A stretch of DNA of 64,000 nucleotides. It comes from Candidatus Dadabacteria bacterium. Its GTDB lineage: Bacteria; Desulfobacterota_D; UBA1144; Nemesobacterales; Nemesobacteraceae. The translations under genes and the position numbers were made by a program. This document shows, piece by piece, positions 2,240 through 49,115 of the stretch. The stretch lies in NCBI GenBank assembly GCA_028823955.1, contig JAPPFE010000020.1, positions 19,797 through 83,796 on the forward strand, in the 5' to 3' direction. Under the pieces are notes generated by a model that was not told the DNA's origin, did not search any database, and worked only from the letters and a program-made list of their open reading frames with translations. Positions within the stretch are counted from its first letter, which is position 1; every line of letters starts with the position of its first letter.

Positions 2240-4174
2240 TTACGAATGTTTTTCCCGGTATACGTAATTTCGTGCAAACAAACAAAAGGCAAGAAGAAGA
2301 AGGACAGCTTGGGGGATCGCGGTCTCATAAGAAGGATATATCCCAAGGGTATCCATGTAAGGAATGAAATCCGCCGTAGTTGAAGAAATAATTCCCGCCT
2401 CCTGGAGTTCAAGTATTCCCTTGCCGAGAAGTATGAAACAGAGCAGGTAGAGGAAAACGCTCGTGAAGGAAAAGAAGTATTTAAGAGGAATCCTGAGGGT
2501 AAACCTGTACATAAGAAAAGCTATTACGAACACAACCGCCACCCCCGCAATAAGTCCATAGATCACGTGTGGCATGGAGGAACCTGTCTGGAAGAAAAGT
2601 GCCTGGTAAAAAAGCATTGTCTCGAAAGCTTCCCTGTAGACAGCAAGGAACGAGACGAAAGCAAGAGTAAGGCCGCTTCTTCGGGTAAGCGCGCCTTGGG
2701 TTTTGGAGCGGACGTATTCCTTCCATTTTTTTACGTCCGCCTTTGAGATAAGCCAGTAACTTACGTAAAAAAGAATCACTGCTGCCAGAAGAGAAGTCAC
2801 TCCTTCCACAATCTCCCTCCTAGCCCCCGAGATATCTATTATGGTTCTTGCCGCAACCCACGTCGCCAGTCCTGCAAAGAGGGCAAGCACCCACCCGTAG
2901 TGAACGTACCTGATCATCCCGCGGTTACCTGAATGCGCTAAAGCGGCGATAATGGCCGCGATTATCAGCAGAGCTTCAAGCGCTTCTCTGAGTATTATGG
3001 CAAAAGAATTGACAAAACTCAGGTATTTGCCGAGCGATGAGCCGCCTTGCAGGATGCGCTCCGACTCGCGAAGATCCTCCTCTATGCTAGCTTTCAGATC
3101 ATGAAGCTCGGAGGAATCCCGGTCGGACATCACTAATGACCTGAAAAATCCCATTTTTTTTTCAACCTCAAGAACAAGCGGTCTTTTTTTCGATACCAGG
3201 GCAGGTTCGATTCTCTGAAACCCTCCCAAGTACCCGTCGAGAGCCTCCTTGAAAGCCTCGTCCTTTCTGCCGGCCTCGTAAAGATCGATGGCCTCTTCAA
3301 GCTTCCTCAGGGTATGGGCTATAGCTTCGGATGCACCTCCAGCAATTCCATCCCGAAGATAAGCGGTTCTCAGGTAAAAAAGAACTTCCTCGTCACTGCC
3401 CCCGGCTCCGGCATTAAGAAGAATCTCCGCATTGCTGGCCAGGGCAAGATTTTCAAGCTTTTTTACATCATGGGGAATATTCTCCGTGGAAAGTCCAGAA
3501 GCACCTCCGCCTGAGGGAATATCTGGATACCCGAGCGAGAGAACGTAAAACGCCACATCCCATTTCTGTTTTTCGTCAAGCACCTTTTCGAACGAGGTCA
3601 TGGCGGTACCTTCGATCCCGAAAGTGGTGGTGTTGTAAACTTTAAAAGGTGAGAGCCCGAGATTTATATCAGGGTCTGTGAAATCCGTGGGAGGAGGATT
3701 GAGGGTCTTAGAGAAAGCATCGTCCGGCCTTCCTGAGAGCCCATGACAGGAGGAACAGTTCCTCACGTAAAGCTCTTTTCCGCTTTCGTAATCGGGTATA
3801 TTCGCCGGATAGGGTTTGATGTCATAGACTGAAATGATCCGCCCCTTCAGTTCACCTGCAAGGCTTTCCACTTCTGAGACGGGCCCCTTGGATACTATAA
3901 TTGAGTGCAGACGTGCGAATTTTTCGGAAAAATCAGCTGTTCCTTCTCTCTTCTCACCCGTTTTTTCCCACAGACCAGCCGCTACGGAAGAAAAGTCCAG
4001 CATCTCCTGATACTCAAATTCGTTTATGATCTTCCCTTCTTTTACGGCATTTGCGTAGTCTCCTCCTATGTAATCGACAAGAGAGAGGATCCTGTCTATC
4101 TCTGCGGCATAAGAGAGCGCGGGAAAAAGAAAAAATATGAGAACTGACAAATAGAAGAAACTTTTTTTAAGCAT
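2240..4174 (-). CDS. Fusion protein: periplasmic c-type cytochrome domain + FTR1/EfeU-family high-affinity iron permease
   Basis: Signal peptide MLKKSFFYLSVLIFFLFPALSYA. Single CXXCH heme-binding motif (NCSSCHG) with a downstream GTAMTSF Met-ligand region. C-terminal 7-TM domain carries two REXXE motifs (REALE, REAFE) typical of FTR1 permeases. The alternative upstream ATG at 4195 would give 651 aa. Confidence 0.75.
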   Translation of the reverse strand: MLKKSFFYLSVLIFFLFPALSYAAEIDRILSLVDYIGGDYANAVKEGKIINEFEYQEMLDFSSVAAGLWEKTGEKREGTADFSEKFARLHSIIVSKGPVSEVESLAGELKGRIISVYDIKPYPANIPDYESGKELYVRNCSSCHGLSGRPDDAFSKTLNPPPTDFTDPDINLGLSPFKVYNTTTFGIEGTAMTSFEKVLDEKQKWDVAFYVLSLGYPDIPSGGGASGLSTENIPHDVKKLENLALASNAEILLNAGAGGSDEEVLFYLRTAYLRDGIAGGASEAIAHTLRKLEEAIDLYEAGRKDEAFKEALDGYLGGFQRIEPALVSKKRPLVLEVEKKMGFFRSLVMSDRDSSELHDLKASIEEDLRESERILQGGSSLGKYLSFVNSFAIILREALEALLIIAAIIAALAHSGNRGMIRYVHYGWVLALFAGLATWVAARTIIDISGARREIVEGVTSLLAAVILFYVSYWLISKADVKKWKEYVRSKTQGALTRRSGLTLAFVSFLAVYREAFETMLFYQALFFQTGSSMPHVIYGLIAGVAVVFVIAFLMYRFTLRIPLKYFFSFTSVFLYLLCFILLGKGILELQEAGIISSTTADFIPYMDTLGIYPSYETAIPQAVLLLLAFCLFARNYVYREKHS

Positions 4175-4351
4175 AGTCCGCGAATATCTCCCCATCTTGG
4201 GGGTCAGGGAAGGTATTTTTTACCATTCTAGACCTTTATTGTCAATAATTCTCATTGTCGTCATTTTCGCCTATCTACATAGTTCCGTGAAGAAAATCAG
4301 ACGGGTAATTTCGCTGATTTTCTTATCTGCAAATATTTTTAAAAAAAATTC

Positions 4352-4380
4352 TTGACATCATAACTCCAGGATGTTATTAA
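4352..4380 (+). promoter_or_regulatory. Candidate sigma70-type promoter (TTGACA - 17 bp - TATTAA) for the porin operon in the AT-rich divergent intergenic region
   Basis: TTGACA at 4352..4357 and TTATTAA at about 4374..4380, about 80 bp upstream of the 4461 start codon. The intergenic region 4196..4460 is strongly AT-rich relative to its flanks. Confidence 0.35.
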
Positions 4381-4385
4381 TCTAC

Positions 4386-4410
4386 ATTATGGATATTACA
4401 TATCCATAAT
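4386..4410. promoter_or_regulatory. Perfect inverted repeat ATTATGGATAT-tac-ATATCCATAAT, a candidate operator overlapping the transcription start region
   Basis: 11-bp arms with a 3-bp spacer, seen directly in the sequence just downstream of the putative -10 element. Sits between the divergent FTR1-cytochrome gene and the porin/FMN-binding operon. Confidence 0.35.
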
Positions 4411-4460
4411 ATCTACTAATTAGGCAACCCTAACAGGTCGCAAAAGGAGGATGTCAACAG

Positions 4461-5777
4461 ATGGTTAATTATACAAAAAGGTGGAAAACGCTTTTTGTCT
4501 TTTTCCTGATTTTTTCACTCGGAGGTACGCAGATTTCTCTAGCGGGTACGGCTTCGGACGAAAAGATAAAAAAGCTTGAGGAACAGATAAAAGTTCTAGC
4601 GGATGAGATAGAAGCCATAAAGTCCGCTTCGGTAACAGAGCCTACGGTCTATGAGACGGAATTCGGCTTGGCCCCCGCGGCTTCTAAGGTCTACAGGGTT
4701 GATCAGGGAATATCGTTCGGAGGATACGGTGAGGTGCTTATAGGCAACGTAAAAGAGGGGGATGCGAACGATGTAGTGGATACCCTGAGACTGGTTCTCT
4801 ATAACGGCTACAAGTACAACGACCACATAATTTTCAACTCGGAAATCGAGTTCGAGCACGGTACGACGGGAAGCAACAAAGATGGACAATCAGGATCGGC
4901 CTCGGTTGAGTTCGCGTACGTCGATTTCCTTATAAGGGATGAGCTTAACCTTCGGGGTGGGCTTCTGCTGACTCCTTTCGGAGTTGTAAACGAGATTCAT
5001 GAGCCGACAACGTTTTACGGAGTGGGGCGACCCGAGGTGGAGAGACGGATAATTCCGAGCACATGGAGAGAGTCTGGAGCCGGGGCACATGGAACGTTTG
5101 ATCTGGGCAGCGGCGGAGAGCTTTCTTACAGGGCCTACGTGATGTCGAGCGCCGATGCTCGGGGGTTCAAGGCATCGGATAACAGAAGTCTTCGAATCAA
5201 GGGAAACAGGGCAAGATTCGAGGACATGGCTTTTGTCGGAAGGCTTGAGTACGATCCTATTCCGGGAATCAGAATCGGAGGATCCATGTACTACGGTAAC
5301 ACCGGTCAGGACGAGGAAGTTAACGGCCAGACTATAGACGGCCTCTTCCAGATGTACTCGGTTGACGGACAGTTTCAGTATGCAGGGTTAGACCTGAAGG
5401 CTTTAGCAGTCTGGACCAGTCTTGATGACGCCGCGCTTATAAACCAACTTAAAGAGTATGAAGGCAACAAATCCGTCGGGGAGGAACAGTCCGGCTGGTA
5501 TATTCTAGGAGCATATAACATTTTCTCCGCGCTTAACTCTGGAAGCAGATACATGGAGTACCTAGCGCCTTTTTTCCGATATGAACAATTTGATACCCAG
5601 GAGAAGGTTCCCGCCGGATATGAGAGAAATCCAGCGAACGACAGAACCCAGTACACTATCGGGATAAATTACAAGCCGATTCCAAACGTGGTCATAAAGG
5701 CAGAGTATCAGAATCTTGATACCGCCGCGGGTCAGGCAAAGGACCAGTACAACTTCGGGATTGGATATGTGTTTTAG
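4461..5777 (+). CDS. Outer-membrane porin, phosphate-selective porin O/P-like (N-terminal coiled coil + beta-barrel)
   Basis: Signal peptide, then a coiled-coil segment (EKIKKLEEQIKVLADEIEAIKSA). Alternating amphipathic beta-strands and a C-terminal ...YNFGIGYVF ending in aromatic Phe, typical of OMP barrels. Resembles the second porin at 44022..45293. Confidence 0.6.
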   Translation: MVNYTKRWKTLFVFFLIFSLGGTQISLAGTASDEKIKKLEEQIKVLADEIEAIKSASVTEPTVYETEFGLAPAASKVYRVDQGISFGGYGEVLIGNVKEGDANDVVDTLRLVLYNGYKYNDHIIFNSEIEFEHGTTGSNKDGQSGSASVEFAYVDFLIRDELNLRGGLLLTPFGVVNEIHEPTTFYGVGRPEVERRIIPSTWRESGAGAHGTFDLGSGGELSYRAYVMSSADARGFKASDNRSLRIKGNRARFEDMAFVGRLEYDPIPGIRIGGSMYYGNTGQDEEVNGQTIDGLFQMYSVDGQFQYAGLDLKALAVWTSLDDAALINQLKEYEGNKSVGEEQSGWYILGAYNIFSALNSGSRYMEYLAPFFRYEQFDTQEKVPAGYERNPANDRTQYTIGINYKPIPNVVIKAEYQNLDTAAGQAKDQYNFGIGYVF

Positions 5778-5890
5778 TATGCAGAACTTAAATCCGCGAT
5801 AAACGGGCGCGGGTTTATGCTTCTTTTTTTTCTCTCCTTCTCTCTCTTCAAAAGGGCAATATTCAGATAGAATGTTGCCCTTCTTTCATC

Positions 5891-6442
5891 ATGAATATGA
5901 GAATCCTTATCTTAATAACGCTTTTGTTTTTTCTGCATGGTGCCGGAGATGTCTCCGCCAAGGTCTTTCTTACCAAAGGCAAGGCGCTTGAGCTCCTTTT
6001 CCCTGAAGCAGAAGAAATAGAAAAAAGACACGTTTTTCTCACCAAGCCCCAGGCCGAAAGCGTACGTGAAATGGCCAGGGTAGAGGTAGATTCAAGACTC
6101 TACACTTTCTACATAGCGAAATCCGGCGCAAAAGAGACAGGCTACGCGGTTATCGATACCCACACTCTTCGTACCTTGACCGAAACCGTAATGTTCGTAA
6201 TAAATCCCGATGGGACGCTTCGCCACGCCGAAACTCTCGCATTTTTCGAACCCACAGATTACATGCCGAGCGGAAAATGGATAAACTTGTTCCTGGAAAA
6301 AACCAAGATGGACAGAATGAAGGTAGGAAAAGGAGTTCCCAATATTACCGGAGCCACGATAAGTGCGGTATCTTTTTCGCAAGCCACGAGAAGAGTCCTC
6401 GCAGTCTACAGGGTTATGTTCGGCACTACGGCTGATCAATAA
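5891..6442 (+). CDS. Secreted FMN-binding-domain protein (NqrC/RnfG-like), predicted substrate for covalent flavinylation
   Basis: Signal peptide MNMRILILITLLFFLHGAGDVSA. C-terminal ...VPNITGATISAVSFSQATRRVL matches the [S/T]GAT[I/V]S flavinylation motif of FMN_bind domains. ApbE is encoded immediately downstream (convergent). Confidence 0.6.
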   Translation: MNMRILILITLLFFLHGAGDVSAKVFLTKGKALELLFPEAEEIEKRHVFLTKPQAESVREMARVEVDSRLYTFYIAKSGAKETGYAVIDTHTLRTLTETVMFVINPDGTLRHAETLAFFEPTDYMPSGKWINLFLEKTKMDRMKVGKGVPNITGATISAVSFSQATRRVLAVYRVMFGTTADQ

Positions 6443-6462
6443 CTTCTATCCAGGAGAGAAAA

Positions 6463-6957
6463 ATGAAATTCTTCATTTCATCGGACATAAGAAAAAACGA
6501 TCTGTTAAAACTTGTCGTTCTGCTCACGACTATTTTCTTCCTCTTTCTGTGGCTAACAAACCTGCTGCTTTTCCTTAAGGTGGGGTTCAGCTATGAAAGC
6601 GTTGTTGAGTACTACAGGGGTTCCGAGGAGAGTTTCAGGCCTCCGAGAAGCTACCTTGGACTGCTTGAAGAAGCCCATTTCCACTTTTTCTCAATGGCCG
6701 TTTTACTTGTAACGCTAAATCATCTCTTTCTTTTCACTAACAGAAGCTCCGCTGAGAAGCTTCTCGTCATAATAGCGTCTTACGGCTCGGCCTTCCTCGA
6801 TATAGCCGGCGGCTGGCTAGTAAGATATGTAAGCCCCGAGTTTGCCTATGTTAAAATCGGCTCTTTTGTTGTCCTTCAGATATCTCTTCTTTACCTGATC
6901 ATTTTCGTAACGTTTTATCTCTACAGAAAAAAACCAGAATATCCGAAGCAGCAGTGA
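6463..6957 (+). CDS. Small integral membrane protein (about 4 TM), unknown function
   Basis: 164 aa and strongly hydrophobic. Start is 20 bp after the FMN-binding gene, so probably co-transcribed. No recognised motif. Confidence 0.45.
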   Translation: MKFFISSDIRKNDLLKLVVLLTTIFFLFLWLTNLLLFLKVGFSYESVVEYYRGSEESFRPPRSYLGLLEEAHFHFFSMAVLLVTLNHLFLFTNRSSAEKLLVIIASYGSAFLDIAGGWLVRYVSPEFAYVKIGSFVVLQISLLYLIIFVTFYLYRKKPEYPKQQ

Positions 6958-6969
6958 CTCCCCTGCACC

Positions 6970-7947
6970 CTACGGGCACGCATAAGACCCGAAGCAGGAC
7001 TTTTTCTTTCCGCTTTTCCAAACGACGAGAAAACCCAGTGATTTATCCTTCCTGGCAAACATCTTCGCGCCACGCGGACCCAGAACCGAAACGGCAGTCG
7101 AGAAGATATCGGCTTCCGTAGCGGTTTTGGAAACGGCTACAACGGAAGTCACGTCCTCAGCCGGCCAACCCGTCCTGGGATCAATTATATGGGAGTATCT
7201 TTTCCCATCGTGCTCAAAGTAGCGCTCATAATCTCCTGAAGTCGCGACACCCTTGTCCACAAGGTCAAGCTTCGAGATGATTTCGCTTCCGCTCCCGGGT
7301 TTTCTCACTCCCACATCCCAGAACTTTTTGCCTGCGGGGGGGTCCATTGCGTATATGTTTCCCCCGAAATTCACAAGCCCCCTCTTGATCCCGTTTTGCC
7401 TGGCGATATTTACCATCTCGTCAACCGCATAGCCTTTTCCTATAGCTCCGAAGTCGAGTCTGACACAGTCGCCGTCAAGGAAAACCTGGGATTTAACTTC
7501 GTCTATCTTTATTTTCCGAAAACCCGTACACCCAAGTGCGTCGCGGATCCGTGACCGGCCGGGTAACCGCCCCGCCTTGGTCTCAGTCCCCCAGAGTTCG
7601 AAAAGACTGCCGATAGTTATGTCAAAAGCCCCTTCGGTAAGCTCTGAGTACTTAATCGAGGTCCGCACGAGACGTAGAAACTCTGTGGGAACGGAAACGG
7701 GAGCAACTCCCGCATTCCTGTTCACCTCAGCAAGAACACTGTCATCCCTGTAGTTACTGAAAAGCCGGTCTATTTCCTTGGTTCTCTTCACGCAGGCATC
7801 AACAACCCGGTGAAAAAGTTCTTCGCTCGGGGAATAAAACTTAAGTTTCACCGTTGAACCCATCGAGTAAAAAGATCTCTCGTAAAGATTCTCCGTACCG
7901 TGGGAGCAGGAACAAAGAAGCAAAGCTAAAAGCACAAGAAGGCGCAT
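6970..7947 (-). CDS. apbE: FAD:protein FMN transferase ApbE (lipoprotein)
   Basis: Lipobox-like LLLCSCS signal. ApbE-family blocks GAIGKGYAVDE, SGDYERYFEHDGKRYSHIIDPRTGWP and TATEADIFSTAV. Confidence 0.85.
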   Translation of the reverse strand: MRLLVLLALLLCSCSHGTENLYERSFYSMGSTVKLKFYSPSEELFHRVVDACVKRTKEIDRLFSNYRDDSVLAEVNRNAGVAPVSVPTEFLRLVRTSIKYSELTEGAFDITIGSLFELWGTETKAGRLPGRSRIRDALGCTGFRKIKIDEVKSQVFLDGDCVRLDFGAIGKGYAVDEMVNIARQNGIKRGLVNFGGNIYAMDPPAGKKFWDVGVRKPGSGSEIISKLDLVDKGVATSGDYERYFEHDGKRYSHIIDPRTGWPAEDVTSVVAVSKTATEADIFSTAVSVLGPRGAKMFARKDKSLGFLVVWKSGKKKSCFGSYACP

Positions 7948-8280: not shown

Positions 8281-9216
8281 TTGAACTCTCAGCTAAGATC
8301 GTTTATTTTTGAAGTTGTGGAAAATCTAATAAATCACCTCAGGGAATACAACAATGCTTACAGCTCGCAGATAGAAAACCTGGTGCTTTCTATTCTGATA
8401 GTGGCAATACTGTTCTTCCTAAGAAAAATCCTGATCTCGATCATAACCAAGAACACGAAAGATCCCAGGACAGTCTATTACTCAAAACGCATTATAGGAT
8501 ACATCTACGCCTTCCTTGCCATAATACTGGTCGGCAGCTTGTGGATAAAGGGCCTGGGCCCCATAGGAACCTATCTGGGTATCGCGAGCGCCGGTCTCGC
8601 CATAGCACTTCATGAGACCATAGCCAACATTGCAGGCTGGTTCTTCATCCTCTGGAGAAAACCCTTCGTAATAGGGGACCGCATACAGATAGGAGAAACC
8701 AAGGGGGACGTAATAGATTTAAGGCTTTTTCAGTTCAGCATAGTCGAGGTCGGAAACTGGGTTGAAGCTGAACAGAGTACGGGCAGGATCATACATATTC
8801 CCAACAGTCATGTGCTGAAGGAGAGAACCGCGAATTACCACGGCGCGTTTAACTATATATGGAATGAGATACATGTCCTCGTAACGTTTGAGAGCGACTG
8901 GAAAAAGACCCGTGAAATTCTTGAGAGAATAGCAAAAGAAAAAATTGAATCTTCTTCAGGGCAGGCTGAACAACAGCTCCGCCTAGCCGCCGAGAGATAC
9001 ATGATACATTTCTCGAAGCTAACCCCGGCGGTTTACATGTCGACAAGAGACAGTGGAGTGCTTTTCTCAATCAGATACATAATAAATCCGAGACAGAAAA
9101 GAGGCTCCGAACAAACTATTTGGGAAGCGATACTAACCGAGTTTGGAAAGCATTCCGACATCGATTTCGCTTACCCGACGACGCGCTTCTATACTCCTCT
9201 GCCCGAGAGTCCTTAA
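8281..9216 (+). CDS. Mechanosensitive ion channel, MscS family
   Basis: Three N-terminal TM helices followed by the MscS beta-domain signature FVIGDRIQIGETKGDVIDLRLFQFSIVEVGNW. No in-frame ATG before the channel domain, so the start is probably TTG at 8281 or GTG near 8317. Confidence 0.7.
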   Translation: MNSQLRSFIFEVVENLINHLREYNNAYSSQIENLVLSILIVAILFFLRKILISIITKNTKDPRTVYYSKRIIGYIYAFLAIILVGSLWIKGLGPIGTYLGIASAGLAIALHETIANIAGWFFILWRKPFVIGDRIQIGETKGDVIDLRLFQFSIVEVGNWVEAEQSTGRIIHIPNSHVLKERTANYHGAFNYIWNEIHVLVTFESDWKKTREILERIAKEKIESSSGQAEQQLRLAAERYMIHFSKLTPAVYMSTRDSGVLFSIRYIINPRQKRGSEQTIWEAILTEFGKHSDIDFAYPTTRFYTPLPESP

Positions 9217-9259
9217 AAAACAGAACTCTCTCCCTGAACTGGGAAAAACAGGATCCCTG

Positions 9260-11926
9260 CTACCTGTTCTCAGTGGAATCTCCTTCGGGTTTCAGGATGG
9301 AAACCGCAGCTGTCTCAGGATTTATGTACTTCCTAGCCACCCTAGCTACGTCATCAGCCGTAACAGAAAGGATCTTCTCCGGGAACTTTCTGTATTCGTA
9401 AGTACCTATTCCGTAAAGTTCGTCAAATCCGACCGTGGACGCTTGGGCGGAGTTCCTCTGAAGCCCTATCTCGAAGCTGCCGACTATGTAGTTCTTCGCC
9501 CTCTCAAGCTCATGTTCCCCGATACCCTCCAAGGCAAGCTGGAGCTGTTCCTTTATCGCTCCGAGCGCCTCTTTTTCCTTCTGCGGAGCAGTTCCTATAT
9601 AGACGCCGAAATAGCCACCTTCCATCCCAGGAACGTAGAACGAGGTAACGGCATAGGCGAGGCTTTTCTTGTCCCGAAGCTCAATGAAGAGCCTTCCCCC
9701 CTGACCTGAGAGCACCGAATTCAGCACCTCGAACGCATAGCGGTCGCGACTTTTAAACCCCGGGGCGTGAAAACCCGCGATGATGTGGGTCTGGGCCTTG
9801 TCTCTCTCAAACTCGACGATTTCCCTCGCAGCAGAAAGCGCAGATTCGCGGGGCGGCCGGATCTTTTCGAAGACGCCCTGCTTCATGCTACCAAACAGTT
9901 TTTCAAGAAGGGCAGGGGTTTTCTCCGCATCAATATCACCCGCAACGGAAATAACCATGTTCTCGGGCCTTATGACTTTTTTGTAAAACTCCCGGACATC
10001 GGCTGAGGTAAATCCGTCTACGTTTTCCTCGGTTCCCAGAACGTTGAACCTGTAGGGGTGCTTGAGGAAAAGGGTCCTGAGAAAATTCCTGACCGCCTTT
10101 CCCGTGAGGTTATCCTTCTGTTTTTCCAAAGCGGCCAGGATTTCCCTTCTCTCTCTCTCCATTTCCTCATCGGAAAAAGAAGGATCAAGTATCACGTCTG
10201 AGAAAATATCCATTGCCCCTTCAAAGTTCTCACTTAAGGCTGAGAGAGTCACCCCAACGCTGTTTTTCCCAGAAAAGCCGTCGACCGTTCCCCCCAGCCC
10301 TTCTATCTGAGTGGCTATATCTTCTGCGGAGCGGCTCGAGGTACCACGGGTGAACATCCCGGACATGAAGTTCGAAATTCCGTTTGTGTTTTCGTCCTCA
10401 TATCCGAGACCGCCCAGGAAAGCCGCGTGAACGGAGAAAAGTGGAACGGCAGGGTTACGTTTCAAAAGAACCCGGATTCCGTTTGAAAGCTCGTATTTCT
10501 TAAATTCCGCCTGCGTTGAGGAAGCTTTTTTCTTTTCTTTTTCCTGAGTCGCTCCAGGAAAAACAAGGGCTTTCCTGAAGCCCTTCTCAACCCCCTTGGT
10601 TTTGTCTTTAGGAAGCAGCACTCCCGCGGTGAGGTTTTTCTGCTTGAAGTATTCTCTGGCCACCCGCAATATGTCTTCTGGGGTAACATTCCTCACCCTC
10701 TCAAGGTAGAGGCGTTCGTAGCCGTAATCTCCCGTTTCAAGCTCGAAGTAACCAAGCTTTCTCGCCTGTCCCTGCATGGTCTCCTTGGCGCGGATGAAGT
10801 CCCTCTCTATGTTAGTTTTGGCGCGGGCAAGCTCCTCGGCCCCGACGGGTTCGTTTTTTATAAGCTCTATCTCTGCCACTATCTCCTTTGAGGCTTTTTC
10901 CACTTTACCGGGATCAAAAACTCCGCCCACGAGGAAAAGACCGTTTTCCTTGAGGCTGTAGGCGTAGGCGTATATGTCGTTTACGGTGGCGTTTTGCTCC
11001 TTTAGTTTTCTGTAGAGCCTGGAGCTTTCCCCGGTACCGAGTATGCCGCTTATAACGTCAAGAACGGGAGTGTCAGCGTGGCTCGCCGAGGGGGTATGAA
11101 AGGCAAAGCTGAAGTAGCCCGTGTTTACGTCGCGGCCGATAACGAAAGTTCTTGTGCGTTTCTGCTCGGGTTCCGGGGGAAGTTTGCACTCAGGAGTTTT
11201 TCTTTTCTTTATTTTTCCGAAAGTCCGGGCAACCGCGTCCTTTATTCCCTCAGGATCAAAATCCCCGACCACAACAAGAATCATGTTGTCCGGAGAATAC
11301 CACTTTCTGTAGAAATCCAGTATTCCGTCTCTGGTGAAGCTCCCCACGCTCTGCTTGGTTCCTATTATGGGCCTTCCGTAGGGATGAACGCTGTAGGCCG
11401 TGGAGAAAAGCTTCTGGCTGATTACCCTTGAGGGAGAATCCTCTCCCCTTCTTATCTCTTCCTGGACAACTTCAAGCTCTTTCTCAAGCTCCGCGGGGTC
11501 AAAAGTCGAGTTCTCCATGACGTCTGAGAGCACATCGAGAGCCATAGGCAGAAAGCGCCGCGCGCTTACGATGTAGTAAACCGTCTCATCAAAGGAGGTA
11601 AACGCATTTATGTCTCCGCCTCCCGCCTCGACCATCCCGGCTATCTCGCCGACCCGTCTTCCTTCTGTCCCCTTGAAAAGCATGTGTTCGTGCACATGCG
11701 CGAGGCCGTACTCGCCCTCCACCTCGCATGCGCTTCCGGTCTTCACCCACACGTTAACGGCGACAACCGGAGAAGAATCGTTTCTCTCAAGAAGCACGGT
11801 CATGCCGTTAGAAAGACTATATTTCGTTACTCCTTCGACAACCGCAAAGGTCTGGGCATTTAAACTCATAAGACTTGCTCCCGTAATCAGAATGAATAAA
11901 AAAAGTAATTTGAAAACCCCTTTCAT
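9260..11926 (-). CDS. Secreted M16-family zinc metallopeptidase (insulinase/pitrilysin-like, duplicated M16 halves)
   Basis: 888 aa with signal peptide. Inverted zinc motif HVHEHMLFKGT (HXXEH) and downstream glutamates. A second inactive-type M16 half in the C-terminal 450 aa. Confidence 0.85.
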   Translation of the reverse strand: MKGVFKLLFLFILITGASLMSLNAQTFAVVEGVTKYSLSNGMTVLLERNDSSPVVAVNVWVKTGSACEVEGEYGLAHVHEHMLFKGTEGRRVGEIAGMVEAGGGDINAFTSFDETVYYIVSARRFLPMALDVLSDVMENSTFDPAELEKELEVVQEEIRRGEDSPSRVISQKLFSTAYSVHPYGRPIIGTKQSVGSFTRDGILDFYRKWYSPDNMILVVVGDFDPEGIKDAVARTFGKIKKRKTPECKLPPEPEQKRTRTFVIGRDVNTGYFSFAFHTPSASHADTPVLDVISGILGTGESSRLYRKLKEQNATVNDIYAYAYSLKENGLFLVGGVFDPGKVEKASKEIVAEIELIKNEPVGAEELARAKTNIERDFIRAKETMQGQARKLGYFELETGDYGYERLYLERVRNVTPEDILRVAREYFKQKNLTAGVLLPKDKTKGVEKGFRKALVFPGATQEKEKKKASSTQAEFKKYELSNGIRVLLKRNPAVPLFSVHAAFLGGLGYEDENTNGISNFMSGMFTRGTSSRSAEDIATQIEGLGGTVDGFSGKNSVGVTLSALSENFEGAMDIFSDVILDPSFSDEEMERERREILAALEKQKDNLTGKAVRNFLRTLFLKHPYRFNVLGTEENVDGFTSADVREFYKKVIRPENMVISVAGDIDAEKTPALLEKLFGSMKQGVFEKIRPPRESALSAAREIVEFERDKAQTHIIAGFHAPGFKSRDRYAFEVLNSVLSGQGGRLFIELRDKKSLAYAVTSFYVPGMEGGYFGVYIGTAPQKEKEALGAIKEQLQLALEGIGEHELERAKNYIVGSFEIGLQRNSAQASTVGFDELYGIGTYEYRKFPEKILSVTADDVARVARKYINPETAAVSILKPEGDSTENR

Positions 11927-11953
11927 CGACTCCAGCCTCCAGAGGGAAAACCC

Positions 11954-12787
11954 CTAGGACTCGTCGCTGGCCAAGGCTTCTGACTCTTTGTCCCGCGATG
12001 TAGCCTTCGCGGCCAGCTTCCAGGCACAACGTCCGAGCTCGAGGATAAAATAGCAGTAAGTTATAAGGACCGCGATCACTCCGGGATTGGTAATAAGCGC
12101 CGCAATTATTATGGAGCCCGCAACAAGAGTGCTGAAAGGTCCAAATCTGGCAATTCGCGGGAACTTTCTGTATGGAACCTCGCTAACCATAACAAGTCCC
12201 ACAACAGGAACGAAGAAAAGATAAAAAGATTTCATAAGTGGGGTAGCAACGATCTGAAACTCAGAGAGAAGGAGTATCGGAGAGAGAATAAGTCCCGCAG
12301 CCATAGGACTCGGAAGACCCGTGAACATGCGCTTTTCCTTGGTTGTAAACTGCACGTTAAAACGCGCAAGCCTAAGTGCTGCGCAGACCACGTAGAAAAG
12401 CATCGCCATCAGTCCCGGATTTCCATATTCCGAAAGCCCCCAAACGTAAAGAAGCACTGCCGGGGCGACCCCGAACGATACAAGATCGCAGAGCGAATCA
12501 TAGGACGCGCCAAAGCGGCTCTCCGAGTTAAGAGCTCTTGCTATTCTGCCGTCAAGCATGTCGACAAGTACCGCCATGCCGATAAATCCCGCTGCCCACC
12601 AGAAGCGATTAAAAAGCCATTCCTCAGAAACTACGGCTGAGGCACGGTCCCCGTGGATGGAAATCGAAGTCACTATGGACGCAAGCCCGAACGCAAGGCC
12701 CACGGTCGTGAGCATGCTCGGTAGCAGGGGGATAACCCTCCCCGGACGGGGATGTCTTCTCCTTCTTTTTTTTCTCAAGTTAGCCAC
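11954..12787 (-). CDS. pssA: CDP-diacylglycerol--serine O-phosphatidyltransferase (CDP-alcohol phosphatidyltransferase family)
   Basis: CDP-OH phosphotransferase motif region AVLVDMLDGRIARALNSESRFGASYDSLCDLVSFGVAPAVL. Operon partner of psd. Confidence 0.8.
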   Translation of the reverse strand: MANLRKKRRRRHPRPGRVIPLLPSMLTTVGLAFGLASIVTSISIHGDRASAVVSEEWLFNRFWWAAGFIGMAVLVDMLDGRIARALNSESRFGASYDSLCDLVSFGVAPAVLLYVWGLSEYGNPGLMAMLFYVVCAALRLARFNVQFTTKEKRMFTGLPSPMAAGLILSPILLLSEFQIVATPLMKSFYLFFVPVVGLVMVSEVPYRKFPRIARFGPFSTLVAGSIIIAALITNPGVIAVLITYCYFILELGRCAWKLAAKATSRDKESEALASDES

Positions 12788-13425
12788 GCTATAACCGTCC
12801 TGCCGCCCACGACTTTCTGCCCCACCTCAACTCCCACCTTCACATCCTCGGGCAGGTAAACATCCACCCTTGAACCAAACTTTATAATCCCGAATTTTTC
12901 CCCGATTTCCAATACGTCGCCGAATTTCGCACGCGATACGATTCTTCTCGCGAGAAAACCAGCCACCTGGACTATAACCACCTGGACTTCCCCCTCGCAC
13001 TCAATCAGGGTGACAAGCCGCTCGTTGGCCTCGGATGAATCACCCTTAAAAGCCATTTTGAATTCCCCGGGGTAATAAGTGGTTCCGACTACCTTACCCG
13101 AAACGGGAAATCTGTTTATATGGCAGTCGAAGATAGAGAGAAAAATGCTTATTCTTCGGGCGTTCCGCTTAAGATAATCGTCTTCAAGCGTCTCCGAAAT
13201 ATCTATTATTTTCCCGTCCGCGGGACAGATCACGGAACCGGGTTCAAGTGTAGGAAGTTCCCTTTCAGGATCCCTGAAGAAAAAGACGAAAAAAGCGGTG
13301 AGCAGAAGAAATACTAAAAATAAAGAGAGAGAACCCAGAAGCGCGAAGAGAATACATAGCGCGGCTGAAACGTAAATTATACTGAGCCCATCGCTTGCGA
13401 CCCTCACAAATCGGAAATCCATCAA
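12775..13425 (-). CDS. psd: Phosphatidylserine decarboxylase proenzyme (short archaeal-type Psd family)
   Basis: 216 aa. N-terminal TM helix then a PSD fold with the cleavage-site region [10 protein letters not shown] (the GS[T/R] motif). Start overlaps the ilvC stop (ATGA). Confidence 0.8.
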
Positions 13426-14435
13426 TTCTTGTCTTTATCGACCAGTTTCTTCTGGAAAAGCGAGCTCATCATTCCCCTAAGCTCGGCGCCGACTTTTTCG
13501 ATCGGATGCTCTTCACCCTGCCTGAGAAGCGCGTTATAGGAAGGCCTTCCAGCCTGATTCTCAAGTATCCATTCCGAGGCGAACTGTCCGGACTGAATCT
13601 CCCCGATTATTTTTTTCATCTCCTGTTTTACGGAGTCGTCTATAAGCCTCGGGCCCCTAGTTATGTCTCCGTACTTGGCCGTATCGCTCACCGAGTAACG
13701 CATGTTAGCTATCCCGCCCTCGTATATGAGGTCAACTATAAGCTTGACTTCGTGGCAGCACTCGAAATAAGCCATCTCGGGCGGATAACCGGCTTCAACA
13801 AGCGTCTCGTATCCTGCCAAGATAAGGGCCGTGAGCCCTCCGCACAGAACTGACTGCTCCCCGAAAAGATCGGTTTCCGTCTCGTCCTTGAAAGTCGTCT
13901 CTATAACTCCCGCCCTTGAACATCCGATGGCTCTGGCGTAAGCAAGAGCAAGATCTTTAGCGTCGCCCGTCGAGTTCTGGTGAACAGCTATGAGTCCCGG
14001 CACACCAGCACCCCCAACATACTGGTCCCTTACCGTGTGCCCCGGGGCCTTGGGAGCGACCATGAACACGTCCACGCCCGCAGGCGGTCTGATCTGTCCG
14101 TAGTGAATATTAAAACCGTGACTGAACATAAGCGCGTTTCCGGCAACCAAGTTCTTTTCGACATGCTCATGGTATATCGCCGGCTGGTAAGTGTCTGGAG
14201 CCAGCATAACCACTATGTCCGCGGATTTGGAAGCGGCGGAAACCGACTTCACGTTAAAACCAGCTTCCTTGGCCTTTTTCCAGTTGGGACTGTCCTTAAT
14301 ATCTGCGACCGTGACCGAGACTCCGCTCTCTCTTAGATTCTGGGCATGGGCGTGACCCTGGCTTCCGTAGCCTATGATCGCAATCTTCTTCTTAAGCTTA
14401 GACGGGTCAATATCCTCATCGTAGTAAACTTTCAC
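13422..14435 (-). CDS. ilvC: Ketol-acid reductoisomerase (NADP+)
   Basis: 337 aa; [38 protein letters not shown] Rossmann N-terminus characteristic of class I KARI. Confidence 0.95.
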
Positions 14436-14450
14436 CGGTTATATCCTCCT

Positions 14451-14945
14451 TTACTTGCTCTTCTTATTCGCCCGGGACATGGCGACGGTTCCCGTTCTCG
14501 CGATTTCCTTTATCCCGAAGGGTCGTTGAAGTTCAACAAACGCCTGAATCTTCTGTTCATCCCCGGTAACCTCGAACGTGTAGGATCTTGGAGACACATC
14601 GACGACCTTGGCCCGGAATATGTCGGCAATCCGCAGAATTTCCGGCTTGGAATCGACCTTCGCATCGACCTTGATGAGAATCATCTCTCTTTCCACGCGG
14701 TCAAGTTCGGTCATGTCAACAACCTTGATCACATTGACCATGTTGTTGAACCTTTTTATTATCTGCTGAATTATGGCTTCGTCGCCGGTTGTGACCAGAG
14801 TTATTCTGGACGTCCCCGGTTCCTGAGTTTCCGCGACATTAAGACTCTCTATGTTAAAATCCCTGGCGCTGAAAAGCCCCGCGATTCTTGAGAGTACTCC
14901 GGCTTCATTATCTACCGTTATTGATATCGTGTGTCTCGATTTCAT
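14451..14945 (-). CDS. ilvH: Acetolactate synthase small (regulatory) subunit
   Basis: 164 aa; ACT-domain N-terminus HTISITVDNEAGVLSRIAGLFSARDFNIESL. Confidence 0.9.
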   Translation of the reverse strand: MKSRHTISITVDNEAGVLSRIAGLFSARDFNIESLNVAETQEPGTSRITLVTTGDEAIIQQIIKRFNNMVNVIKVVDMTELDRVEREMILIKVDAKVDSKPEILRIADIFRAKVVDVSPRSYTFEVTGDEQKIQAFVELQRPFGIKEIARTGTVAMSRANKKSK

Positions 14946-15039
14946 GGAACCTCCAAAGTGGTGAAAAATTGTCAGGAAAACGCAATTATACCGAATCCCC
15001 GAGAAATGTTAATACCCACCAGCCAACCACCAAATCTCC

Positions 15040-15360
15040 TCAGCCCCCGGCGTCTTCCTTAAGAATTTCCCCCAGCTCCCCATTTACATGCATGTCGGTA
15101 CATATATCGCATCCGCCTATGAAATTGCCGTTAACGTAGAGCTGCGGAAGGGTTGGCCACTGCGAGTAGTCCTTTATCCCTTGGCGGATCTTCGGATCCA
15201 AAAGAACATCGACGGTCTCGTAATCCACCCCGTAGTAGTTGAGAATGTTCACCACCTGCGCCGAAAAACCACACTGCGGCATCTCTTTTGACCCCTTCAT
15301 GTAAAGGATAATAGGGTTCTCTTCGATCTGACGCCCTATTTTTTTCTGTATATCCGACAT
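15040..15360 (-). CDS. grxD: Monothiol glutaredoxin (Grx4/GrxD family)
   Basis: 106 aa with the CGFS active site (KGSKEMPQCGFSAQ). Confidence 0.9.
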   Translation of the reverse strand: MSDIQKKIGRQIEENPIILYMKGSKEMPQCGFSAQVVNILNYYGVDYETVDVLLDPKIRQGIKDYSQWPTLPQLYVNGNFIGGCDICTDMHVNGELGEILKEDAGG

Positions 15361-21264: not shown

Positions 21265-22119
21265 GTGAGCATCAAAAATCTGTTCGCGGCGTTTCTGTTC
21301 GCCCTCTTCGCCGCGCCAGTTGTGTGCCTAGCAAAACCGCCCTGCCCAAAAAGCATAATATCGCTCACTTTGGCTTCAGATGAAATCCTAGTCGATATAA
21401 TCGGCGACAGAAAGAAAATAACTGCGCTTACCTATTTCTCGACCGACCCGCTGATCTCAAACGTCGTGGAAAAAGCGCGGGGAATTCCCCAGGTCCAAGC
21501 AAACCTCGAGCAGGTAATTGCAAAATCTCCGGATCTCGTGATAGTCGCGGGTCACACCAACCCGAACATACGCGCGCATCTTGAGGCAGCGGGAATAAAA
21601 GTACTGGTGCTCCACGAAATCGTCTCTCTTGAGAGCATAAAAAAGAATATAGAACTGGTTGGAGAGGCTGTCTGCGAGGAAGCCGCGGCGAAAAGCCTCG
21701 TAAAAAAAATGGAAGCCCAGATCGCGGATGCCAGGGCAAAGATTCCGCCTCACGCAAAAGCCCCGACGGTTCTTTTCTACGGAGCTCCAGGGTTCACGGT
21801 CGGCAACCGCTCAACCATAAACGATATAATAGAAAGTTCCGGAGCCATAAACCTCCCGGCACGCCTCGGGCTAAGCGGATACAGCAACATATCTACCGAA
21901 TACGTAATCCAGAACAATCCTGACCTAGTGCTTACAAGTAGTTATAATCCATCTCACCCGGATTTTGTGGACCAGATGTTCAAAAATTCCGCCTTCAGAG
22001 ACAAAAAGATCATAGTCGTCGCGGGAAAACATCTAGACGCCGCGTCTCATTATGCGGCACGGGCCGTAATTGATCTGGTGAACCTGATATTCAGAGCAGA
22101 AAACAATGCCGACCGGTAA
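21265..22119 (+). CDS. ABC transporter periplasmic substrate-binding protein, class III (iron-siderophore/cobalamin, BtuF/FecB-like)
   Basis: GTG start and signal peptide. TroA-like two-lobe pattern, in an operon with a FecCD permease and ATPase. Confidence 0.75.
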   Translation: MSIKNLFAAFLFALFAAPVVCLAKPPCPKSIISLTLASDEILVDIIGDRKKITALTYFSTDPLISNVVEKARGIPQVQANLEQVIAKSPDLVIVAGHTNPNIRAHLEAAGIKVLVLHEIVSLESIKKNIELVGEAVCEEAAAKSLVKKMEAQIADARAKIPPHAKAPTVLFYGAPGFTVGNRSTINDIIESSGAINLPARLGLSGYSNISTEYVIQNNPDLVLTSSYNPSHPDFVDQMFKNSAFRDKKIIVVAGKHLDAASHYAARAVIDLVNLIFRAENNADR

Positions 22120-23143
22120 GAAAACGCTTTCCGTATATGTAGTACTCGCCTCCCTGCTTCTGTTGACCGTCATTGTGTGCGTATCGCTCGGGGCGGTGAG
22201 TGTTCCGTTTGACAAGGTAGTCAGCGTGATAGCCGGCAAGCTGTTCTGGCTTGATACCGGAGCGGGAATCGAAAAATCACAGGAACTTATCGTTTGGAAC
22301 GTTAGGCTCCCCAGGGTTCTTCTCGCCGCCACCATAGGAGGAGGACTCTCAATTGTGGGAGCGGTAATGCAGGCGATGTTCAGAAACCCCCTGGCTGAAC
22401 CTGGAATACTGGGTTGGTCGAGCGGAGGGGCTTTTTTCGCCGTTCTGGTGATCTACACCGGCATTCATCAGCAGTGGTTTCTTCTGCTCCCTCTCGCTGC
22501 GTTTGCAGGCACGCTCCTCACGGCATACGCAGTCTACGGAATATCACGTTACAGGGGGTTTGTCGAGAATACGACGCTTCTTCTCTGCGGGGTAGCGCTA
22601 GGAACACTTTTTGTCTCTCTCACGACTTTCGTGCTTTCGGTATCAAACGCGTGGTCAATGAAGGAAATGCTTTTCTGGATAATGGGCGGAGTCGACTCGC
22701 GCACATGGACGCATTTCGCAATGGCAGCGGTTCCCGTGCTTGCCGCCTCGGTTACGCTGCTTTTTTACGCTAAGAACCTAAACGCAAGACTTCTAGGCTA
22801 CGAGACAGCGAAAACCGTCGGTATCGACATAGAGAAAACGACCAAGCATCTCATAGTCCTGAGTTCCCTAATAGTTGGAGCAAGCGTGGCGGTAAGCGGC
22901 ATCGTGGGGTTCGTCGGACTTATAATTCCGCACTCAATAAGATTGCTGATCGGAGTAGATCATCGCCGGCTCCTGCCCGCAAGTTTTATTGCCGGAGCCA
23001 TATTTCTGCCCGTAGCGGACCTTATAGCTAGAACCGTCATGAGCCCTGAGGAACTTCGCCTCGGGATAATCACTTCCTTCATCGGAGTTCCTTTCTTCGT
23101 GTTTCTGCTGAGGCGAAATTTCAGCGGGAGAGGAATTGCGTAG
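22106..23143 (+). CDS. ABC transporter permease, FecCD/BtuC family
   Basis: 345 aa, 9-10 TM helices, FecCD-family conserved Gly-rich segments. Confidence 0.9.
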   Translation: MPTGKKTLSVYVVLASLLLLTVIVCVSLGAVSVPFDKVVSVIAGKLFWLDTGAGIEKSQELIVWNVRLPRVLLAATIGGGLSIVGAVMQAMFRNPLAEPGILGWSSGGAFFAVLVIYTGIHQQWFLLLPLAAFAGTLLTAYAVYGISRYRGFVENTTLLLCGVALGTLFVSLTTFVLSVSNAWSMKEMLFWIMGGVDSRTWTHFAMAAVPVLAASVTLLFYAKNLNARLLGYETAKTVGIDIEKTTKHLIVLSSLIVGASVAVSGIVGFVGLIIPHSIRLLIGVDHRRLLPASFIAGAIFLPVADLIARTVMSPEELRLGIITSFIGVPFFVFLLRRNFSGRGIA

Positions 23144-23912
23144 AATGCAAAGAGAACCCTTAAAAACATCGGGACTCAGTTACGGAGTAAACGGAAAAAT
23201 CATAGTTGATGACGTAAGCTTCGAGATCAAAAGAAACGAGTTTCTGGGCATAGTCGGCCCCAACGGCGCGGGGAAATCCACGCTTCTTCGCCTTCTTGCC
23301 CGTATAATCAATCCCACCGGAGGCCACATTCTGCTTGACGGAGAGGATATCTCGGGATACGAAGCAAAAGAGCTTTACAAAAAAATATCGTTTCTCCCCC
23401 AAACCTCGTATTTCGATTTTCCGCTGAGCGTGCTTGAGGTAGTACTTACGGGAAGGTATCCGTACCTGGGAACTTTCGAAAGCGAAAACACAGAAGATAT
23501 AAAGCGCGCCGAGGATTGCCTTTCGCTTGTGGACCTGGAAGGGTTTTCTCGAAGAAAAGTAACGACACTCTCGGGAGGAGAGCAGCAGAGAGTGTCGATC
23601 GCAAGGGTTCTTGCGCAGGAAACCGATTTTATTTTCCTTGACGAGCCATCCTCCCACCTTGACATACACCACAAGTTCGCCCTCATGGAACTGCTCGAGT
23701 CGCTAGCTCAAGAAGGAAAAGGGGTCGTGGCCGTTCTCCACGACCTTGATCTTGCGAGCAAGTTCTGCGAAAGGATCCTTGTACTTGAAAATGGACGAGT
23801 CGCAGCCTTGGGAGAACCGTCCCGCGTGCTTTCGGAAAAGCTTCTCTCGTCGGTATTTAAAGTAAGGGGTTCATGGGACCCCAGAGGCGAAAATCTTCTT
23901 GTTTTCCGGTAA
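23136..23912 (+). CDS. ABC transporter ATP-binding protein (FecE/BtuD-like)
   Basis: Walker A GPNGAGKST, signature LSGGEQQR, Walker B FIFLDEPSSHLD. Confidence 0.9.
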   Translation: MRRMQREPLKTSGLSYGVNGKIIVDDVSFEIKRNEFLGIVGPNGAGKSTLLRLLARIINPTGGHILLDGEDISGYEAKELYKKISFLPQTSYFDFPLSVLEVVLTGRYPYLGTFESENTEDIKRAEDCLSLVDLEGFSRRKVTTLSGGEQQRVSIARVLAQETDFIFLDEPSSHLDIHHKFALMELLESLAQEGKGVVAVLHDLDLASKFCERILVLENGRVAALGEPSRVLSEKLLSSVFKVRGSWDPRGENLLVFR

Positions 23913-45293: not shown

Positions 45294-45459
45294 CTCACGT
45301 CCTCCTTGATGTGGTTATTGTTCTGCTCTTAACAACTCTGGCCTAATGATATGTTTAAATGGTTAATTCAGAATAAATAGGCCGTTAATTCTATGTTAAG
45401 AGTCCGCGCCACGCAATTGATGTACACTTTCGTATTCTGTAAATTATCAGGGAAAGCAT

Positions 45460-46158
45460 ATGGAAAAGCTCATAGCAGTAGTAGATGACGAAAAAGATAT
45501 ACTCAACCTGATAACCCACCATCTAAAGCGCGAGGGGTACCAGGTAAAGCCCTTTCAGAGCGGAAAGGACTTTCTGCTCTACATAAATTCCGTTCCGCCT
45601 GATCTGGTGCTGCTTGACATCATGCTGCCCGGCATGGACGGCCTTGAGCTCTGCAGGATCCTGAAAAGCAAGCCCCAAACGCACTCAATACCCATAATCA
45701 TGATCACCGCGAAATCCACCGAGGCCGATATCGTCGTGGGCCTCGAACTCGGCGCTGATGACTATATAGTCAAGCCTTTCCGGATTCGTGAACTTGTCGC
45801 CAGAGTGAAAAGCATCTTGAGAAGATATGCGATGAAAAACCCCGGGGACGAAACACTTCGGATCGGCTCCCTCAGCATAAACCCCGCAAGCTACGAGGTC
45901 TCGGTCGATTCACAAAAAATCGACCTAACCACCACGGAGTTCAGGATACTTGAGACCCTCGCAGAAGCGGAGGGAAAAGTGTTCACCCGCGATCAACTGC
46001 TTAAAAGAAAAACCCTCTGGGGAGACGAACGGGTGGTTTTTGACAGAACGATAGACGTTCACATAAAAAACCTGAGAGAAAAACTGGGTTCTGCCGGCAA
46101 GATGATAAAGACCGTGAGAGGAATCGGTTACAAGCTAGAAGAGATCCAAACAGTTTGA
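45460..46158 (+). CDS. phoB: Phosphate regulon response regulator (OmpR/PhoB family)
   Basis: Receiver domain (VVDDEKDIL...DLVLLDIMLPGMDG) plus winged-helix C-terminus. Stop overlaps the kinase start. Confidence 0.85.
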   Translation: MEKLIAVVDDEKDILNLITHHLKREGYQVKPFQSGKDFLLYINSVPPDLVLLDIMLPGMDGLELCRILKSKPQTHSIPIIMITAKSTEADIVVGLELGADDYIVKPFRIRELVARVKSILRRYAMKNPGDETLRIGSLSINPASYEVSVDSQKIDLTTTEFRILETLAEAEGKVFTRDQLLKRKTLWGDERVVFDRTIDVHIKNLREKLGSAGKMIKTVRGIGYKLEEIQTV

Positions 46159-47522: not shown

Positions 47523-47531
47523 GCGCGGCGG

Positions 47532-48197: not shown

Positions 48198-48221
48198 CTG
48201 TAATTGCTCCTTCGGAGATGC

Positions 48222-49097: not shown

Positions 49098-49115
49098 TAC
49101 TTATACCCTATTAAA

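Follow-up and report, generated by a model that had tools for sequence, protein, structure and literature searches.

The general view is that an FTR1-type permease works only with a partner ferroxidase, which to our knowledge is copper- or peroxidase-dependent in every studied case. The locus described here raises the question of whether iron can be taken up through such a permease without copper. It lies in a 64,000-nucleotide stretch of a Candidatus Dadabacteria genome (contig JAPPFE010000020.1; the whole 64-kb stretch is called the window, and its positions serve as coordinates), where an FTR1 permease fused to a cytochrome c domain is encoded beside a porin, an RnfG/NqrC-like FMN-binding protein (the FMN protein), a four-helix membrane protein (TM4) and the FAD:protein FMN transferase ApbE. 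We tentatively read these genes as two cooperating envelope modules for copper-free reductive-oxidative iron uptake, a reading that falls a little short of being probable. The newer element is the cassette of porin, FMN protein, TM4 and ApbE, which is previously undescribed and has one orphan component, TM4.

Five genes encode two putative envelope modules

The first-pass annotation had proposed a cluster of five genes, and a check of the open reading frames (ORFs) found all five in place:

2240-4195, minus strand: cytochrome c/FTR1 fusion permease, 651 aa; likely start at Met8 (position 4174), giving 644 aa
4461-5777, plus strand: cassette porin, 438 aa, with a signal peptide, a coiled coil and a barrel ending in GYVF
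5891-6442, plus strand: RnfG/NqrC-like FMN-binding protein, 183 aa, secreted, signal peptide ending ...VSA|KV
6463-6957, plus strand: TM4, 164 aa, four-helix inner-membrane protein of PF27139 (Aq_1264_TM)
6970-7947, minus strand: ApbE FAD:protein FMN transferase, 325 aa, convergent with TM4

The genes for the porin, the FMN protein and TM4 are divergent from the permease gene across a 265-bp spacer (4196-4460), whose GC content of 0.33-0.37 bears out the AT-rich promoter region that the two units had been said to share. The TM4 and ApbE genes are convergent with their stop codons 12 bp apart, which places ApbE directly downstream, as had also been noted. No second copy of any module gene is present in the 64-kb window.

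The permease carries an invariant heme c site and invariant REXXE motifs

The permease starts at Met8 in most homologues and is structured as follows:

aa 8-30: signal peptide
aa 31-134: periplasmic helical bundle (31-124 in the AlphaFold model)
aa 135-221: class-I cytochrome c domain (Pfam and model)
about aa 240-385: second helical bundle (AlphaFold model)
about aa 390-651: FTR1 membrane domain
3743-3757, minus strand: the single CXXCH heme c attachment site, C147-S-S-C150-H151
3599-3601, minus strand: codon of the distal ligand Met199
2975-2989, minus strand: first REXXE motif, R403-E-A-L-E407 (REALE), in the first FTR1 helix
2621-2635, minus strand: second REXXE motif, R521-E-A-F-E525 (REAFE)
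2804-2818, minus strand: third, REXXE-like motif, R460-E-I-V-E464, where the third FTR1 helix begins on the periplasmic side

The C-terminal part matches Pfam FTR1 (2e-28; 100 bits against a cut-off of 25.3). It also matches the NCBIfam EfeU/Ftr1 subfamily TIGR00145 at 4e-42, with a score of 117 that lies below the equivalog cut-off of 255. Residues 135-221 match Cytochrom_C (PF00034, 3.5e-9) and Cytochrome_CBB3 (PF13442, 5e-9), both above cut-off. About 360 periplasmic residues, including the heme domain, lie between the signal peptide and the FTR1 helices, and residues 30-380 are modelled with pLDDT of about 80-90. Among the relatives to which the heme domain can be aligned are cbb3 CcoP, ACIII ActE and dihaem cytochromes from Kuenenia, and its fold matches cytochromes c6/c552 with a TM-score of about 0.75-0.8 on the target; both profile and structure thus place the N-terminal domain in a heme family. 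The helical scaffold around it shows no fold or sequence similarity to the M75/imelysin-like domain of EfeO.

Conservation was assessed across 81 homologues with identities as low as about 32%; they come from Thermodesulfobacteriota/Dadabacteria, Binatia, Acidobacteriota, Methylomirabilota, Verrucomicrobiia, Burkholderiales, Methylophaga, Rheinheimera and others. The names carried by homologues also assign the window to Candidatus Dadabacteria. C147, C150, H151 and M199 are kept in 81/81, as are R403, E404 and E407 of the first REXXE motif; R521, E522 and E525 of the second are kept in 80/80. The fused single heme c site with its Met ligand and the two intact REXXE motifs, both claimed from this one sequence, therefore hold throughout the family. 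In the third motif R460 is found in 79/81 and E461 and E464 in all 81. Because the heme site and the REXXE motifs are invariant across phyla, the two halves of the permease have been selected together. Nine further periplasmic residues (D46, Y47, E61, E64, F68, Y322, E330, E345 and R352), which like the third motif had gone unremarked in the first-pass annotation, are likewise invariant across the 81, and one would expect such a set from an iron-binding or iron-relay patch beside the heme.

Far from being rare, the cytochrome c/FTR1 fusion is widespread, with at least 556 species genomes encoding it, and an NCBI product name already exists for it. A literature search found no functional study of the fusion, and the statement that no cytochrome c-fused FTR1 has been characterised biochemically stands as far as the literature could be checked. 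The cyanobacterial cFTR1 (Slr0964) was considered as a prior study; the 'c' there means 'cyanobacterial', and the texts consulted make no mention of a heme domain. Longer relatives of the permease (P0082-P0120, 690-775 aa) end in a cytoplasmic tail of ~85 aa with a conserved F.HIKGHI.EW..C, which may be a regulatory or metal-sensing extension; the window permease has no such tail.

A porin, a putatively flavinylated protein and ApbE accompany TM4 in a cassette

The cassette porin had been called OprO/P-like. Pfam gave sub-threshold matches only (BBP2 at 22.7 bits against a cut-off of 26.2, and a weak Porin_2) and no Porin_O_P (PF07396) match, while a distant Verrucomicrobiia orthologue, from locus L037, just passes Porin_O_P (23.4 against 20.9). 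The porin was also considered as a paralogue of the Pho-regulon OprO/P porin in the window (44022-45293), and that was rejected, the two sharing no similarity beyond the coiled coil. Judged by sequence, the label applies to architecture only, membership not being demonstrable, and the true OprO/P relative is the porin at 44022-45293. The latter, a Porin_O_P member, belongs to a full phosphate-uptake region (44022-54191) with PhoB/PhoR-like two-component genes, PhoU and PstB/A/C/S-like genes. Homologues of the cassette porin head every cassette sampled (phmmer, 1e-15 to 1e-171).

The FMN protein itself scores 18 bits against FMN_bind (PF04205), below the cut-off of 22. Orthologues from other cassettes pass it (40.2 and 24.9 bits). 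A profile built from the family finds RnfG (9eri_G, E=1.5e-13), the match covering almost the full length with the flavinylation site aligned; membership is therefore supported by transitive homology. The flavinylation site is located as follows:

6347-6364, plus strand: flavinylation motif T153-G-A-T156-I-S, with the acceptor Thr156 at 6356-6358

Across 11 sequences, some sharing as little as 20% identity, neither G154 nor T156 varies, so that the earlier description of a secreted FMN_bind-type protein with a TGATIS motif is upheld together with the conservation of its acceptor threonine. ApbE matches PF02424 at 2e-81 (273.8 bits, profile positions 1-259 of 266). Its N-terminus is lipoprotein-like (LLLCSC), and the enzyme is probably a periplasmic lipoprotein. 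Its adjacency to the FMN-protein operon supports the pairing of transferase and substrate that had been proposed.

The cassette has a fixed order and joins the permease facultatively

In a TM4-centred survey of 12 independent cassette contexts, with flanks of up to 8 kb per side, the order porin (414-526 aa), FMN protein (170-201 aa), TM4 was found in 12/12. ApbE is adjacent or fused in nine of them, the exceptions being L083, L086 and the short contig L093. Iron-related genes (DtxR, Fur, FeoB, bacterioferritin) are often near, with FeoB 2.5 kb from one cassette. The four genes constitute an autonomous operon that is sometimes recruited beside the fusion permease. The cassette of L089 is flanked by two ParA/Mrp-like ATPase genes (3897-4955 and 9116-10195).

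A permease-centred survey covered 80 species loci, in which cassette genes were sought by family profile searches; re-screening with profiles for cassettes missed by single-sequence searches added only L034 and L067. Of the 13 close loci of the Dadabacteria clade, 11 have the cassette beside the permease. These count as one observation, since the region from the M16 peptidase to clpX is wholly syntenic. L081, with a permease 49% identical, has the cassette as well.

Outside the clade the linkage has been re-formed independently. In L037 (Verrucomicrobiia) one operon reads ABC transporter, permease fusion, a CCP gene, porin, FMN protein, ApbE and TM4, the last genes overlapping by 4-11 bp, directly downstream of a divergent DtxR-type repressor gene. 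L045 has a partial set, with the FMN protein and ApbE near the permease and other outer-membrane proteins. In L034 (Acidiferrales, 10750-15360) a decayed cassette with a truncated porin and a C-terminal remnant of ApbE lies downstream of the permease, beside a transposase and a bacterioferritin gene, and L067 has a porin near the permease, after which the contig ends. The proposed linkage of porin, FMN protein and ApbE to the permease thus recurs beyond the syntenic clade, but it is facultative. This and the prevalence of cassettes without FTR1 point to two modules that sometimes cooperate, not to one obligate route.

Several features of these neighbourhoods are recorded in their own right. 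The CCP gene of L037 (7712-9466) encodes a dihaem cytochrome c peroxidase/MauG-like protein between permease and porin, which may be an extra periplasmic redox partner or electron acceptor. In L045 two DUF6662 outer-membrane proteins (10269-12124) take the porin's place, and the position of TM4 after ApbE is filled by a His-bearing membrane protein of 244 aa (13396-14130) that matches no Pfam family; these swaps suggest that the cassette parts are modular and exchangeable. The usual neighbours of the permease are TonB-dependent receptors (18 loci), ExbB (12) and DtxR-type repressors (11), and an ABC transporter is also common. A DtxR-type repressor gene with a FeoA domain is divergent from an ABC transporter operon with a PhnD-like binding protein that runs into the permease gene in L037 (2072-5336), L045 (4650-7906) and about nine more loci. 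In the window the module is flanked by genes for an MscS-family channel (8281-9216) and the two-domain M16 peptidase (9260-11926), a clade-wide synteny with no tie to the module. A siderophore/heme/cobalamin-type ABC importer (Peripla_BP_2, FecCD permease and ATPase; 21265-23912) is a possible second iron-related uptake system.

TM4 is a conserved four-helix protein with a histidine site probably split between protomers

TM4 was assigned to PF27139 because precomputed Pfam annotation gives this family for each of its close homologues and for all distant members sampled; a local Pfam copy lacking the PF27139 model gave no match. The family has 451 representatives at 50% clustering, and no literature on it was found. 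The structure model (pLDDT 82.6) has four transmembrane helices, in agreement with the annotation of a 4-TM protein. Far from the mere accessory it had been taken for, TM4 is the most informative and least understood part of the locus, and it is the sole inner-membrane protein of the cassette.

The conserved residues are E69, H72, H74, H87, K99 and K131. The histidine codons are located as follows:

6676-6678, 6682-6684 and 6721-6723, plus strand: codons of H72, H74 and H87

Among single-domain members H72 is kept in 73/85, H74 in 81/85 and H87 in 76/85. In 18 tandem TM4 proteins the first repeat retains only H72 (18/18) and the second only H74 and H87 (18/18 each), and this complementary decay argues that the site is built across the protomer interface. 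All three histidines lie on one helix, and bis-His pairs could form only across a dimer.

TM4 is fused to ApbE in P0251, P0252 and P0254, and a TM4-TM4-ApbE protein is found as P0264. In P0318 (locus L085) it is fused to Fe_dep_repr_C (DtxR_C), the metal-binding domain of iron repressors, and FeoA, with FUR as the next gene. A TM4-PilZ fusion (P0277) was also recorded. Fusion to ApbE comes with one additional hydrophobic helix, whereas fusion to the repressor domain does without, which indicates that both TM4 termini are cytoplasmic; on helix 2, E69, H72 and H74 then occupy the periplasmic end, and H87 lies close to the cytoplasmic one.

Clusters of apbE without a known membrane electron carrier have been found to hide b-type cytochromes (DUF4405), and FezC forms its heme sites by homodimerisation (Huang et al., 2024; PMC10979944). 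By context TM4 would fit this pattern of a hidden b-type cytochrome. Heme binding is put forward only as a hypothesis, because TM4 is not homologous to DUF4405 or FezC and His87 has no His partner in the tandems.

The intergenic region contains two conserved promoter-like islands

Alignment of nine intergenic regions, including that of L081, revealed two conserved promoter-like islands in the spacer:

4227-4249: permease-side conserved island TCTAGACC...TTGTCAATAAT, with TTGACA on the minus strand, an invariant block of the alignment
4352-4410, plus strand: porin-operon promoter-like site, with TTGACA at 4352-4357, a 17-nt spacer and TATTAA at 4375-4380, followed by the palindrome
4386-4410: perfect palindrome ATTATGGATAT-tac-ATATCCATAAT, with 11-bp arms and the core TGGATA-N5-TATCCA (4390-4406), just downstream of the -10

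The first island probably serves the permease gene as its promoter. The palindrome occurs only once in the 64-kb window, where none is expected by chance; Dadabacteria loci and L081 share its core, which is found again ahead of the porin gene of L093, a distant cassette. Its arms are conserved in sequence and do not covary, which favours a protein-binding site over an RNA hairpin, and we regard it as a candidate operator that is not Fur-like. The AT-rich TTGTCAATAATTCTCATTGTC was considered as a Fur box and rejected: only TTGTCAATAAT is conserved, and the block reads as the permease-strand -35 TTGACA.

A model for copper-free iron uptake

The best-supported model of the two modules would be a copper-free counterpart of the yeast Fre1/Fet3/Ftr1 system, with each redox step inferred. 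In module A, the porin would let ferric species, its presumed substrate, into the periplasm, and the secreted RnfG-like protein would receive covalent FMN at Thr156 from the lipoprotein ApbE. TM4 would act as a dimer with a cofactor or metal site formed by His72 of one protomer and His74/His87 of the other, and would most likely carry electrons from a membrane or cytoplasmic pool to the flavin, upon which the flavoprotein would reduce Fe(III) to Fe(II). In module B, the fusion permease would capture Fe(II) on an acidic/aromatic patch (D46, Y47, E61, E64, Y322, E330 and E345), and its His/Met heme c, later re-oxidised by some acceptor, would oxidise the Fe(II) in place of Fet3 or a cupredoxin. 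Fe(III) would then pass through the REXXE-lined FTR1 channel.

A more far-reaching proposal, which we consider doubtful, is that TM4 is a new, structurally unrelated dimeric transmembrane redox conduit and the cassette a self-contained ferric/metal reductase of Gram-negative envelopes. With the fusion, it would then rebuild Fre1/Fet3/Ftr1 from non-homologous copper-free parts, heme c being the ferroxidase.

Several observations weigh against cooperative iron uptake. A monoheme cytochrome c must hand on its electron after Fe(II) oxidation, and no acceptor is encoded nearby. About 63 of the 80 permease loci lack any cassette gene, and the close relatives L009 and L011 keep the permease and have lost the cassette, L009 retaining only a short ApbE fragment (7656-7922). 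Conversely, no FTR1 gene is found within the flanks of up to 8 kb in 9/12 cassette contexts, three of the contigs being only 2.4-3.6 kb long; roughly half of the contexts have no iron gene within 7 kb, and in L091 (9180-11651) a cassette is convergent with a YHS/HMA copper/heavy-metal P-type ATPase gene. The nine-region alignment contains no conserved classical Fur box, and the palindrome matches no operator familiar to us. The membrane part of the permease is modelled with low confidence (pLDDT 40-65). Neither sequence nor fold comparison detected a relation of TM4 to FoxB, MsrQ, DUF4405 or any protein of solved structure, and the unpartnered H87 of the tandems does not fully fit a simple two-heme bis-His wire. 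The first-pass annotation had joined all five genes into a single complete uptake route; its iron-related setting is supported, but the modules stand mostly apart.

This separation is what one would see if the two were unrelated neighbours, the permease being a self-sufficient iron importer and the cassette reducing another porin-delivered substrate (a metal, a quinone or an oxidised organic compound), with their adjacency in Dadabacteria inherited by synteny. The single syntenic origin of the 11 clade loci, the P-type ATPase beside one cassette and the presence of the promoter-proximal palindrome on the porin operon only agree with such independence. We nevertheless judge it improbable: re-association or its remnants are seen in four other lineages (L037, L045, L034 and L067), that of L037 being a single tight operon behind a DtxR-type repressor gene; TM4 is itself fused to an iron-repressor metal-binding domain and FeoA with FUR adjacent; and FeoB and bacterioferritin genes lie near other cassettes.

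The assignment of TM4 within the cooperative model can be questioned separately. TM4 might be a small dimeric transporter that exports FAD or flavin for ApbE, or conducts Fe(II) or another metal, with the flavoprotein receiving electrons from a partner encoded elsewhere. Fusion to ApbE would suit flavin supply, and the DtxR_C/FeoA and PilZ fusions, being cytoplasmic and regulatory, a gated transporter; dimeric four-helix proteins and tandem-fused forms are generally typical of small transporters. Helix 2 has E69, H72 and H74 at its periplasmic end and H87 deeper, an arrangement reminiscent of an ion path, and the missing His partner of H87 in the tandems points the same way. However, all characterised FMN_bind systems have a dedicated membrane electron-transfer partner (PMC8238504; PMC10979944), and the cassette would then have none. 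In addition, H74 and H87 lie 13 residues apart on a single helix, the spacing generally known for heme b ligands in NOX/ferric-reductase-type proteins, and TM4 resembles no known transporter family. A transporter role is accordingly unlikely, to about the same degree as unrelated neighbours.

It is more unlikely still that the cassette is an electron sink passing heme c electrons from Fe(II) through the flavoprotein and TM4 to the quinone pool, as in the FtrD polyferredoxin proposal: such a periplasm-to-membrane redox chain would supply the acceptor that the permease heme needs and that is otherwise not encoded nearby, and the FtrABCD proposals are a generally known precedent for a membrane sink in FTR1 systems, but His/Met class-I cytochromes c usually have potentials far above that of protein-bound FMN, so that heme-to-flavin transfer would be uphill, a dedicated porin would be needless, and most cassettes lack FTR1 just as most fusion permeases lack a cassette.

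Comparison with known systems

The cooperative model shares its proposed logic with yeast Fre1/Fet3/Ftr1, in which Fe(III) is reduced outside, re-oxidised at the permease and channelled through a two-REXXE FTR1 protein, and the permease domain is homologous to Ftr1 (Pfam FTR1). Fet3 is a separate copper enzyme, whereas here a monoheme cytochrome c fused to the permease would act as the oxidase. The part of the reductase would fall to two proteins without homology to Fre1, a small one in the membrane and a covalently flavinylated one in the periplasm, and an outer-membrane porin is added.

EfeUOB, FtrABCD and P19/FTR1 (FetMP) likewise combine an FTR1/EfeU permease with periplasmic redox or metal-binding partners. 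In contrast to them, the window contains no EfeO, EfeB, P19, cupredoxin or polyferredoxin; the redox centre is a heme c fused in cis, and the EfeU equivalog score falls far short (117 versus 255). An FMN_bind protein and ApbE have been found to co-localise with P19/FTR1, which was read as assimilatory iron redox chemistry; the 260 P19/FTR1 clusters, mostly Gram-positive and with P19, were placed in a class that has no transmembrane component for electron transfer (Meheust et al., 2021; PMC8238504). The present locus differs in having no P19, a permease with heme c and a flavoprotein with its own porin and TM4. That paper makes no mention of this cassette, porins, PF27139 or Dadabacteria.

TM4 resembles PepSY-like FoxB, MsrQ-like proteins, DUF4405 and FezC in being a small His-bearing inner-membrane protein found with apbE and FMN_bind and in its iron connection, and it shares evidence of dimerisation with FezC. 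It has no detectable sequence or fold relation to them, and its conserved histidines sit on one of four helices. The 183-aa FMN protein is homologous to RnfG/NqrC with the flavinylated Thr aligned, whereas it stands alone with a cleavable signal peptide and has no RnfD/NqrB or other Rnf/Nqr subunit nearby. An analogy from general knowledge, with no homology claimed, is the Cyc2-type cytochrome c-porin of iron oxidisers, which likewise joins a monoheme c domain in cis to a conduit through a membrane and acts on iron; that conduit is a barrel in the outer membrane, where Fe(II) is oxidised for energy, while the heme here is on an inner-membrane permease.

Discussion

The existence of the fusion is unsurprising to a specialist. 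The cassette, its fixed architecture and the TM4 fusions lead to two sharply testable hypotheses, both directly addressable with recombinant proteins. The presence of a heme c-FTR1 family in hundreds of species suggests a copper-independent route, which would be relevant to low-copper and low-oxygen habitats, and the fused heme c raises the question of the electron's destination. The cassette ties an outer-membrane pore to a flavinylated periplasmic protein. Surveys of flavinylation left many apbE clusters without a membrane electron source, for which the cassette offers a concrete candidate, strongly supported on comparative grounds by its fixed order, ApbE fusions and iron-sensor fusion. As Dadabacteria are uncultured, mechanistic leads on how they acquire metals are few, and the locus provides one.

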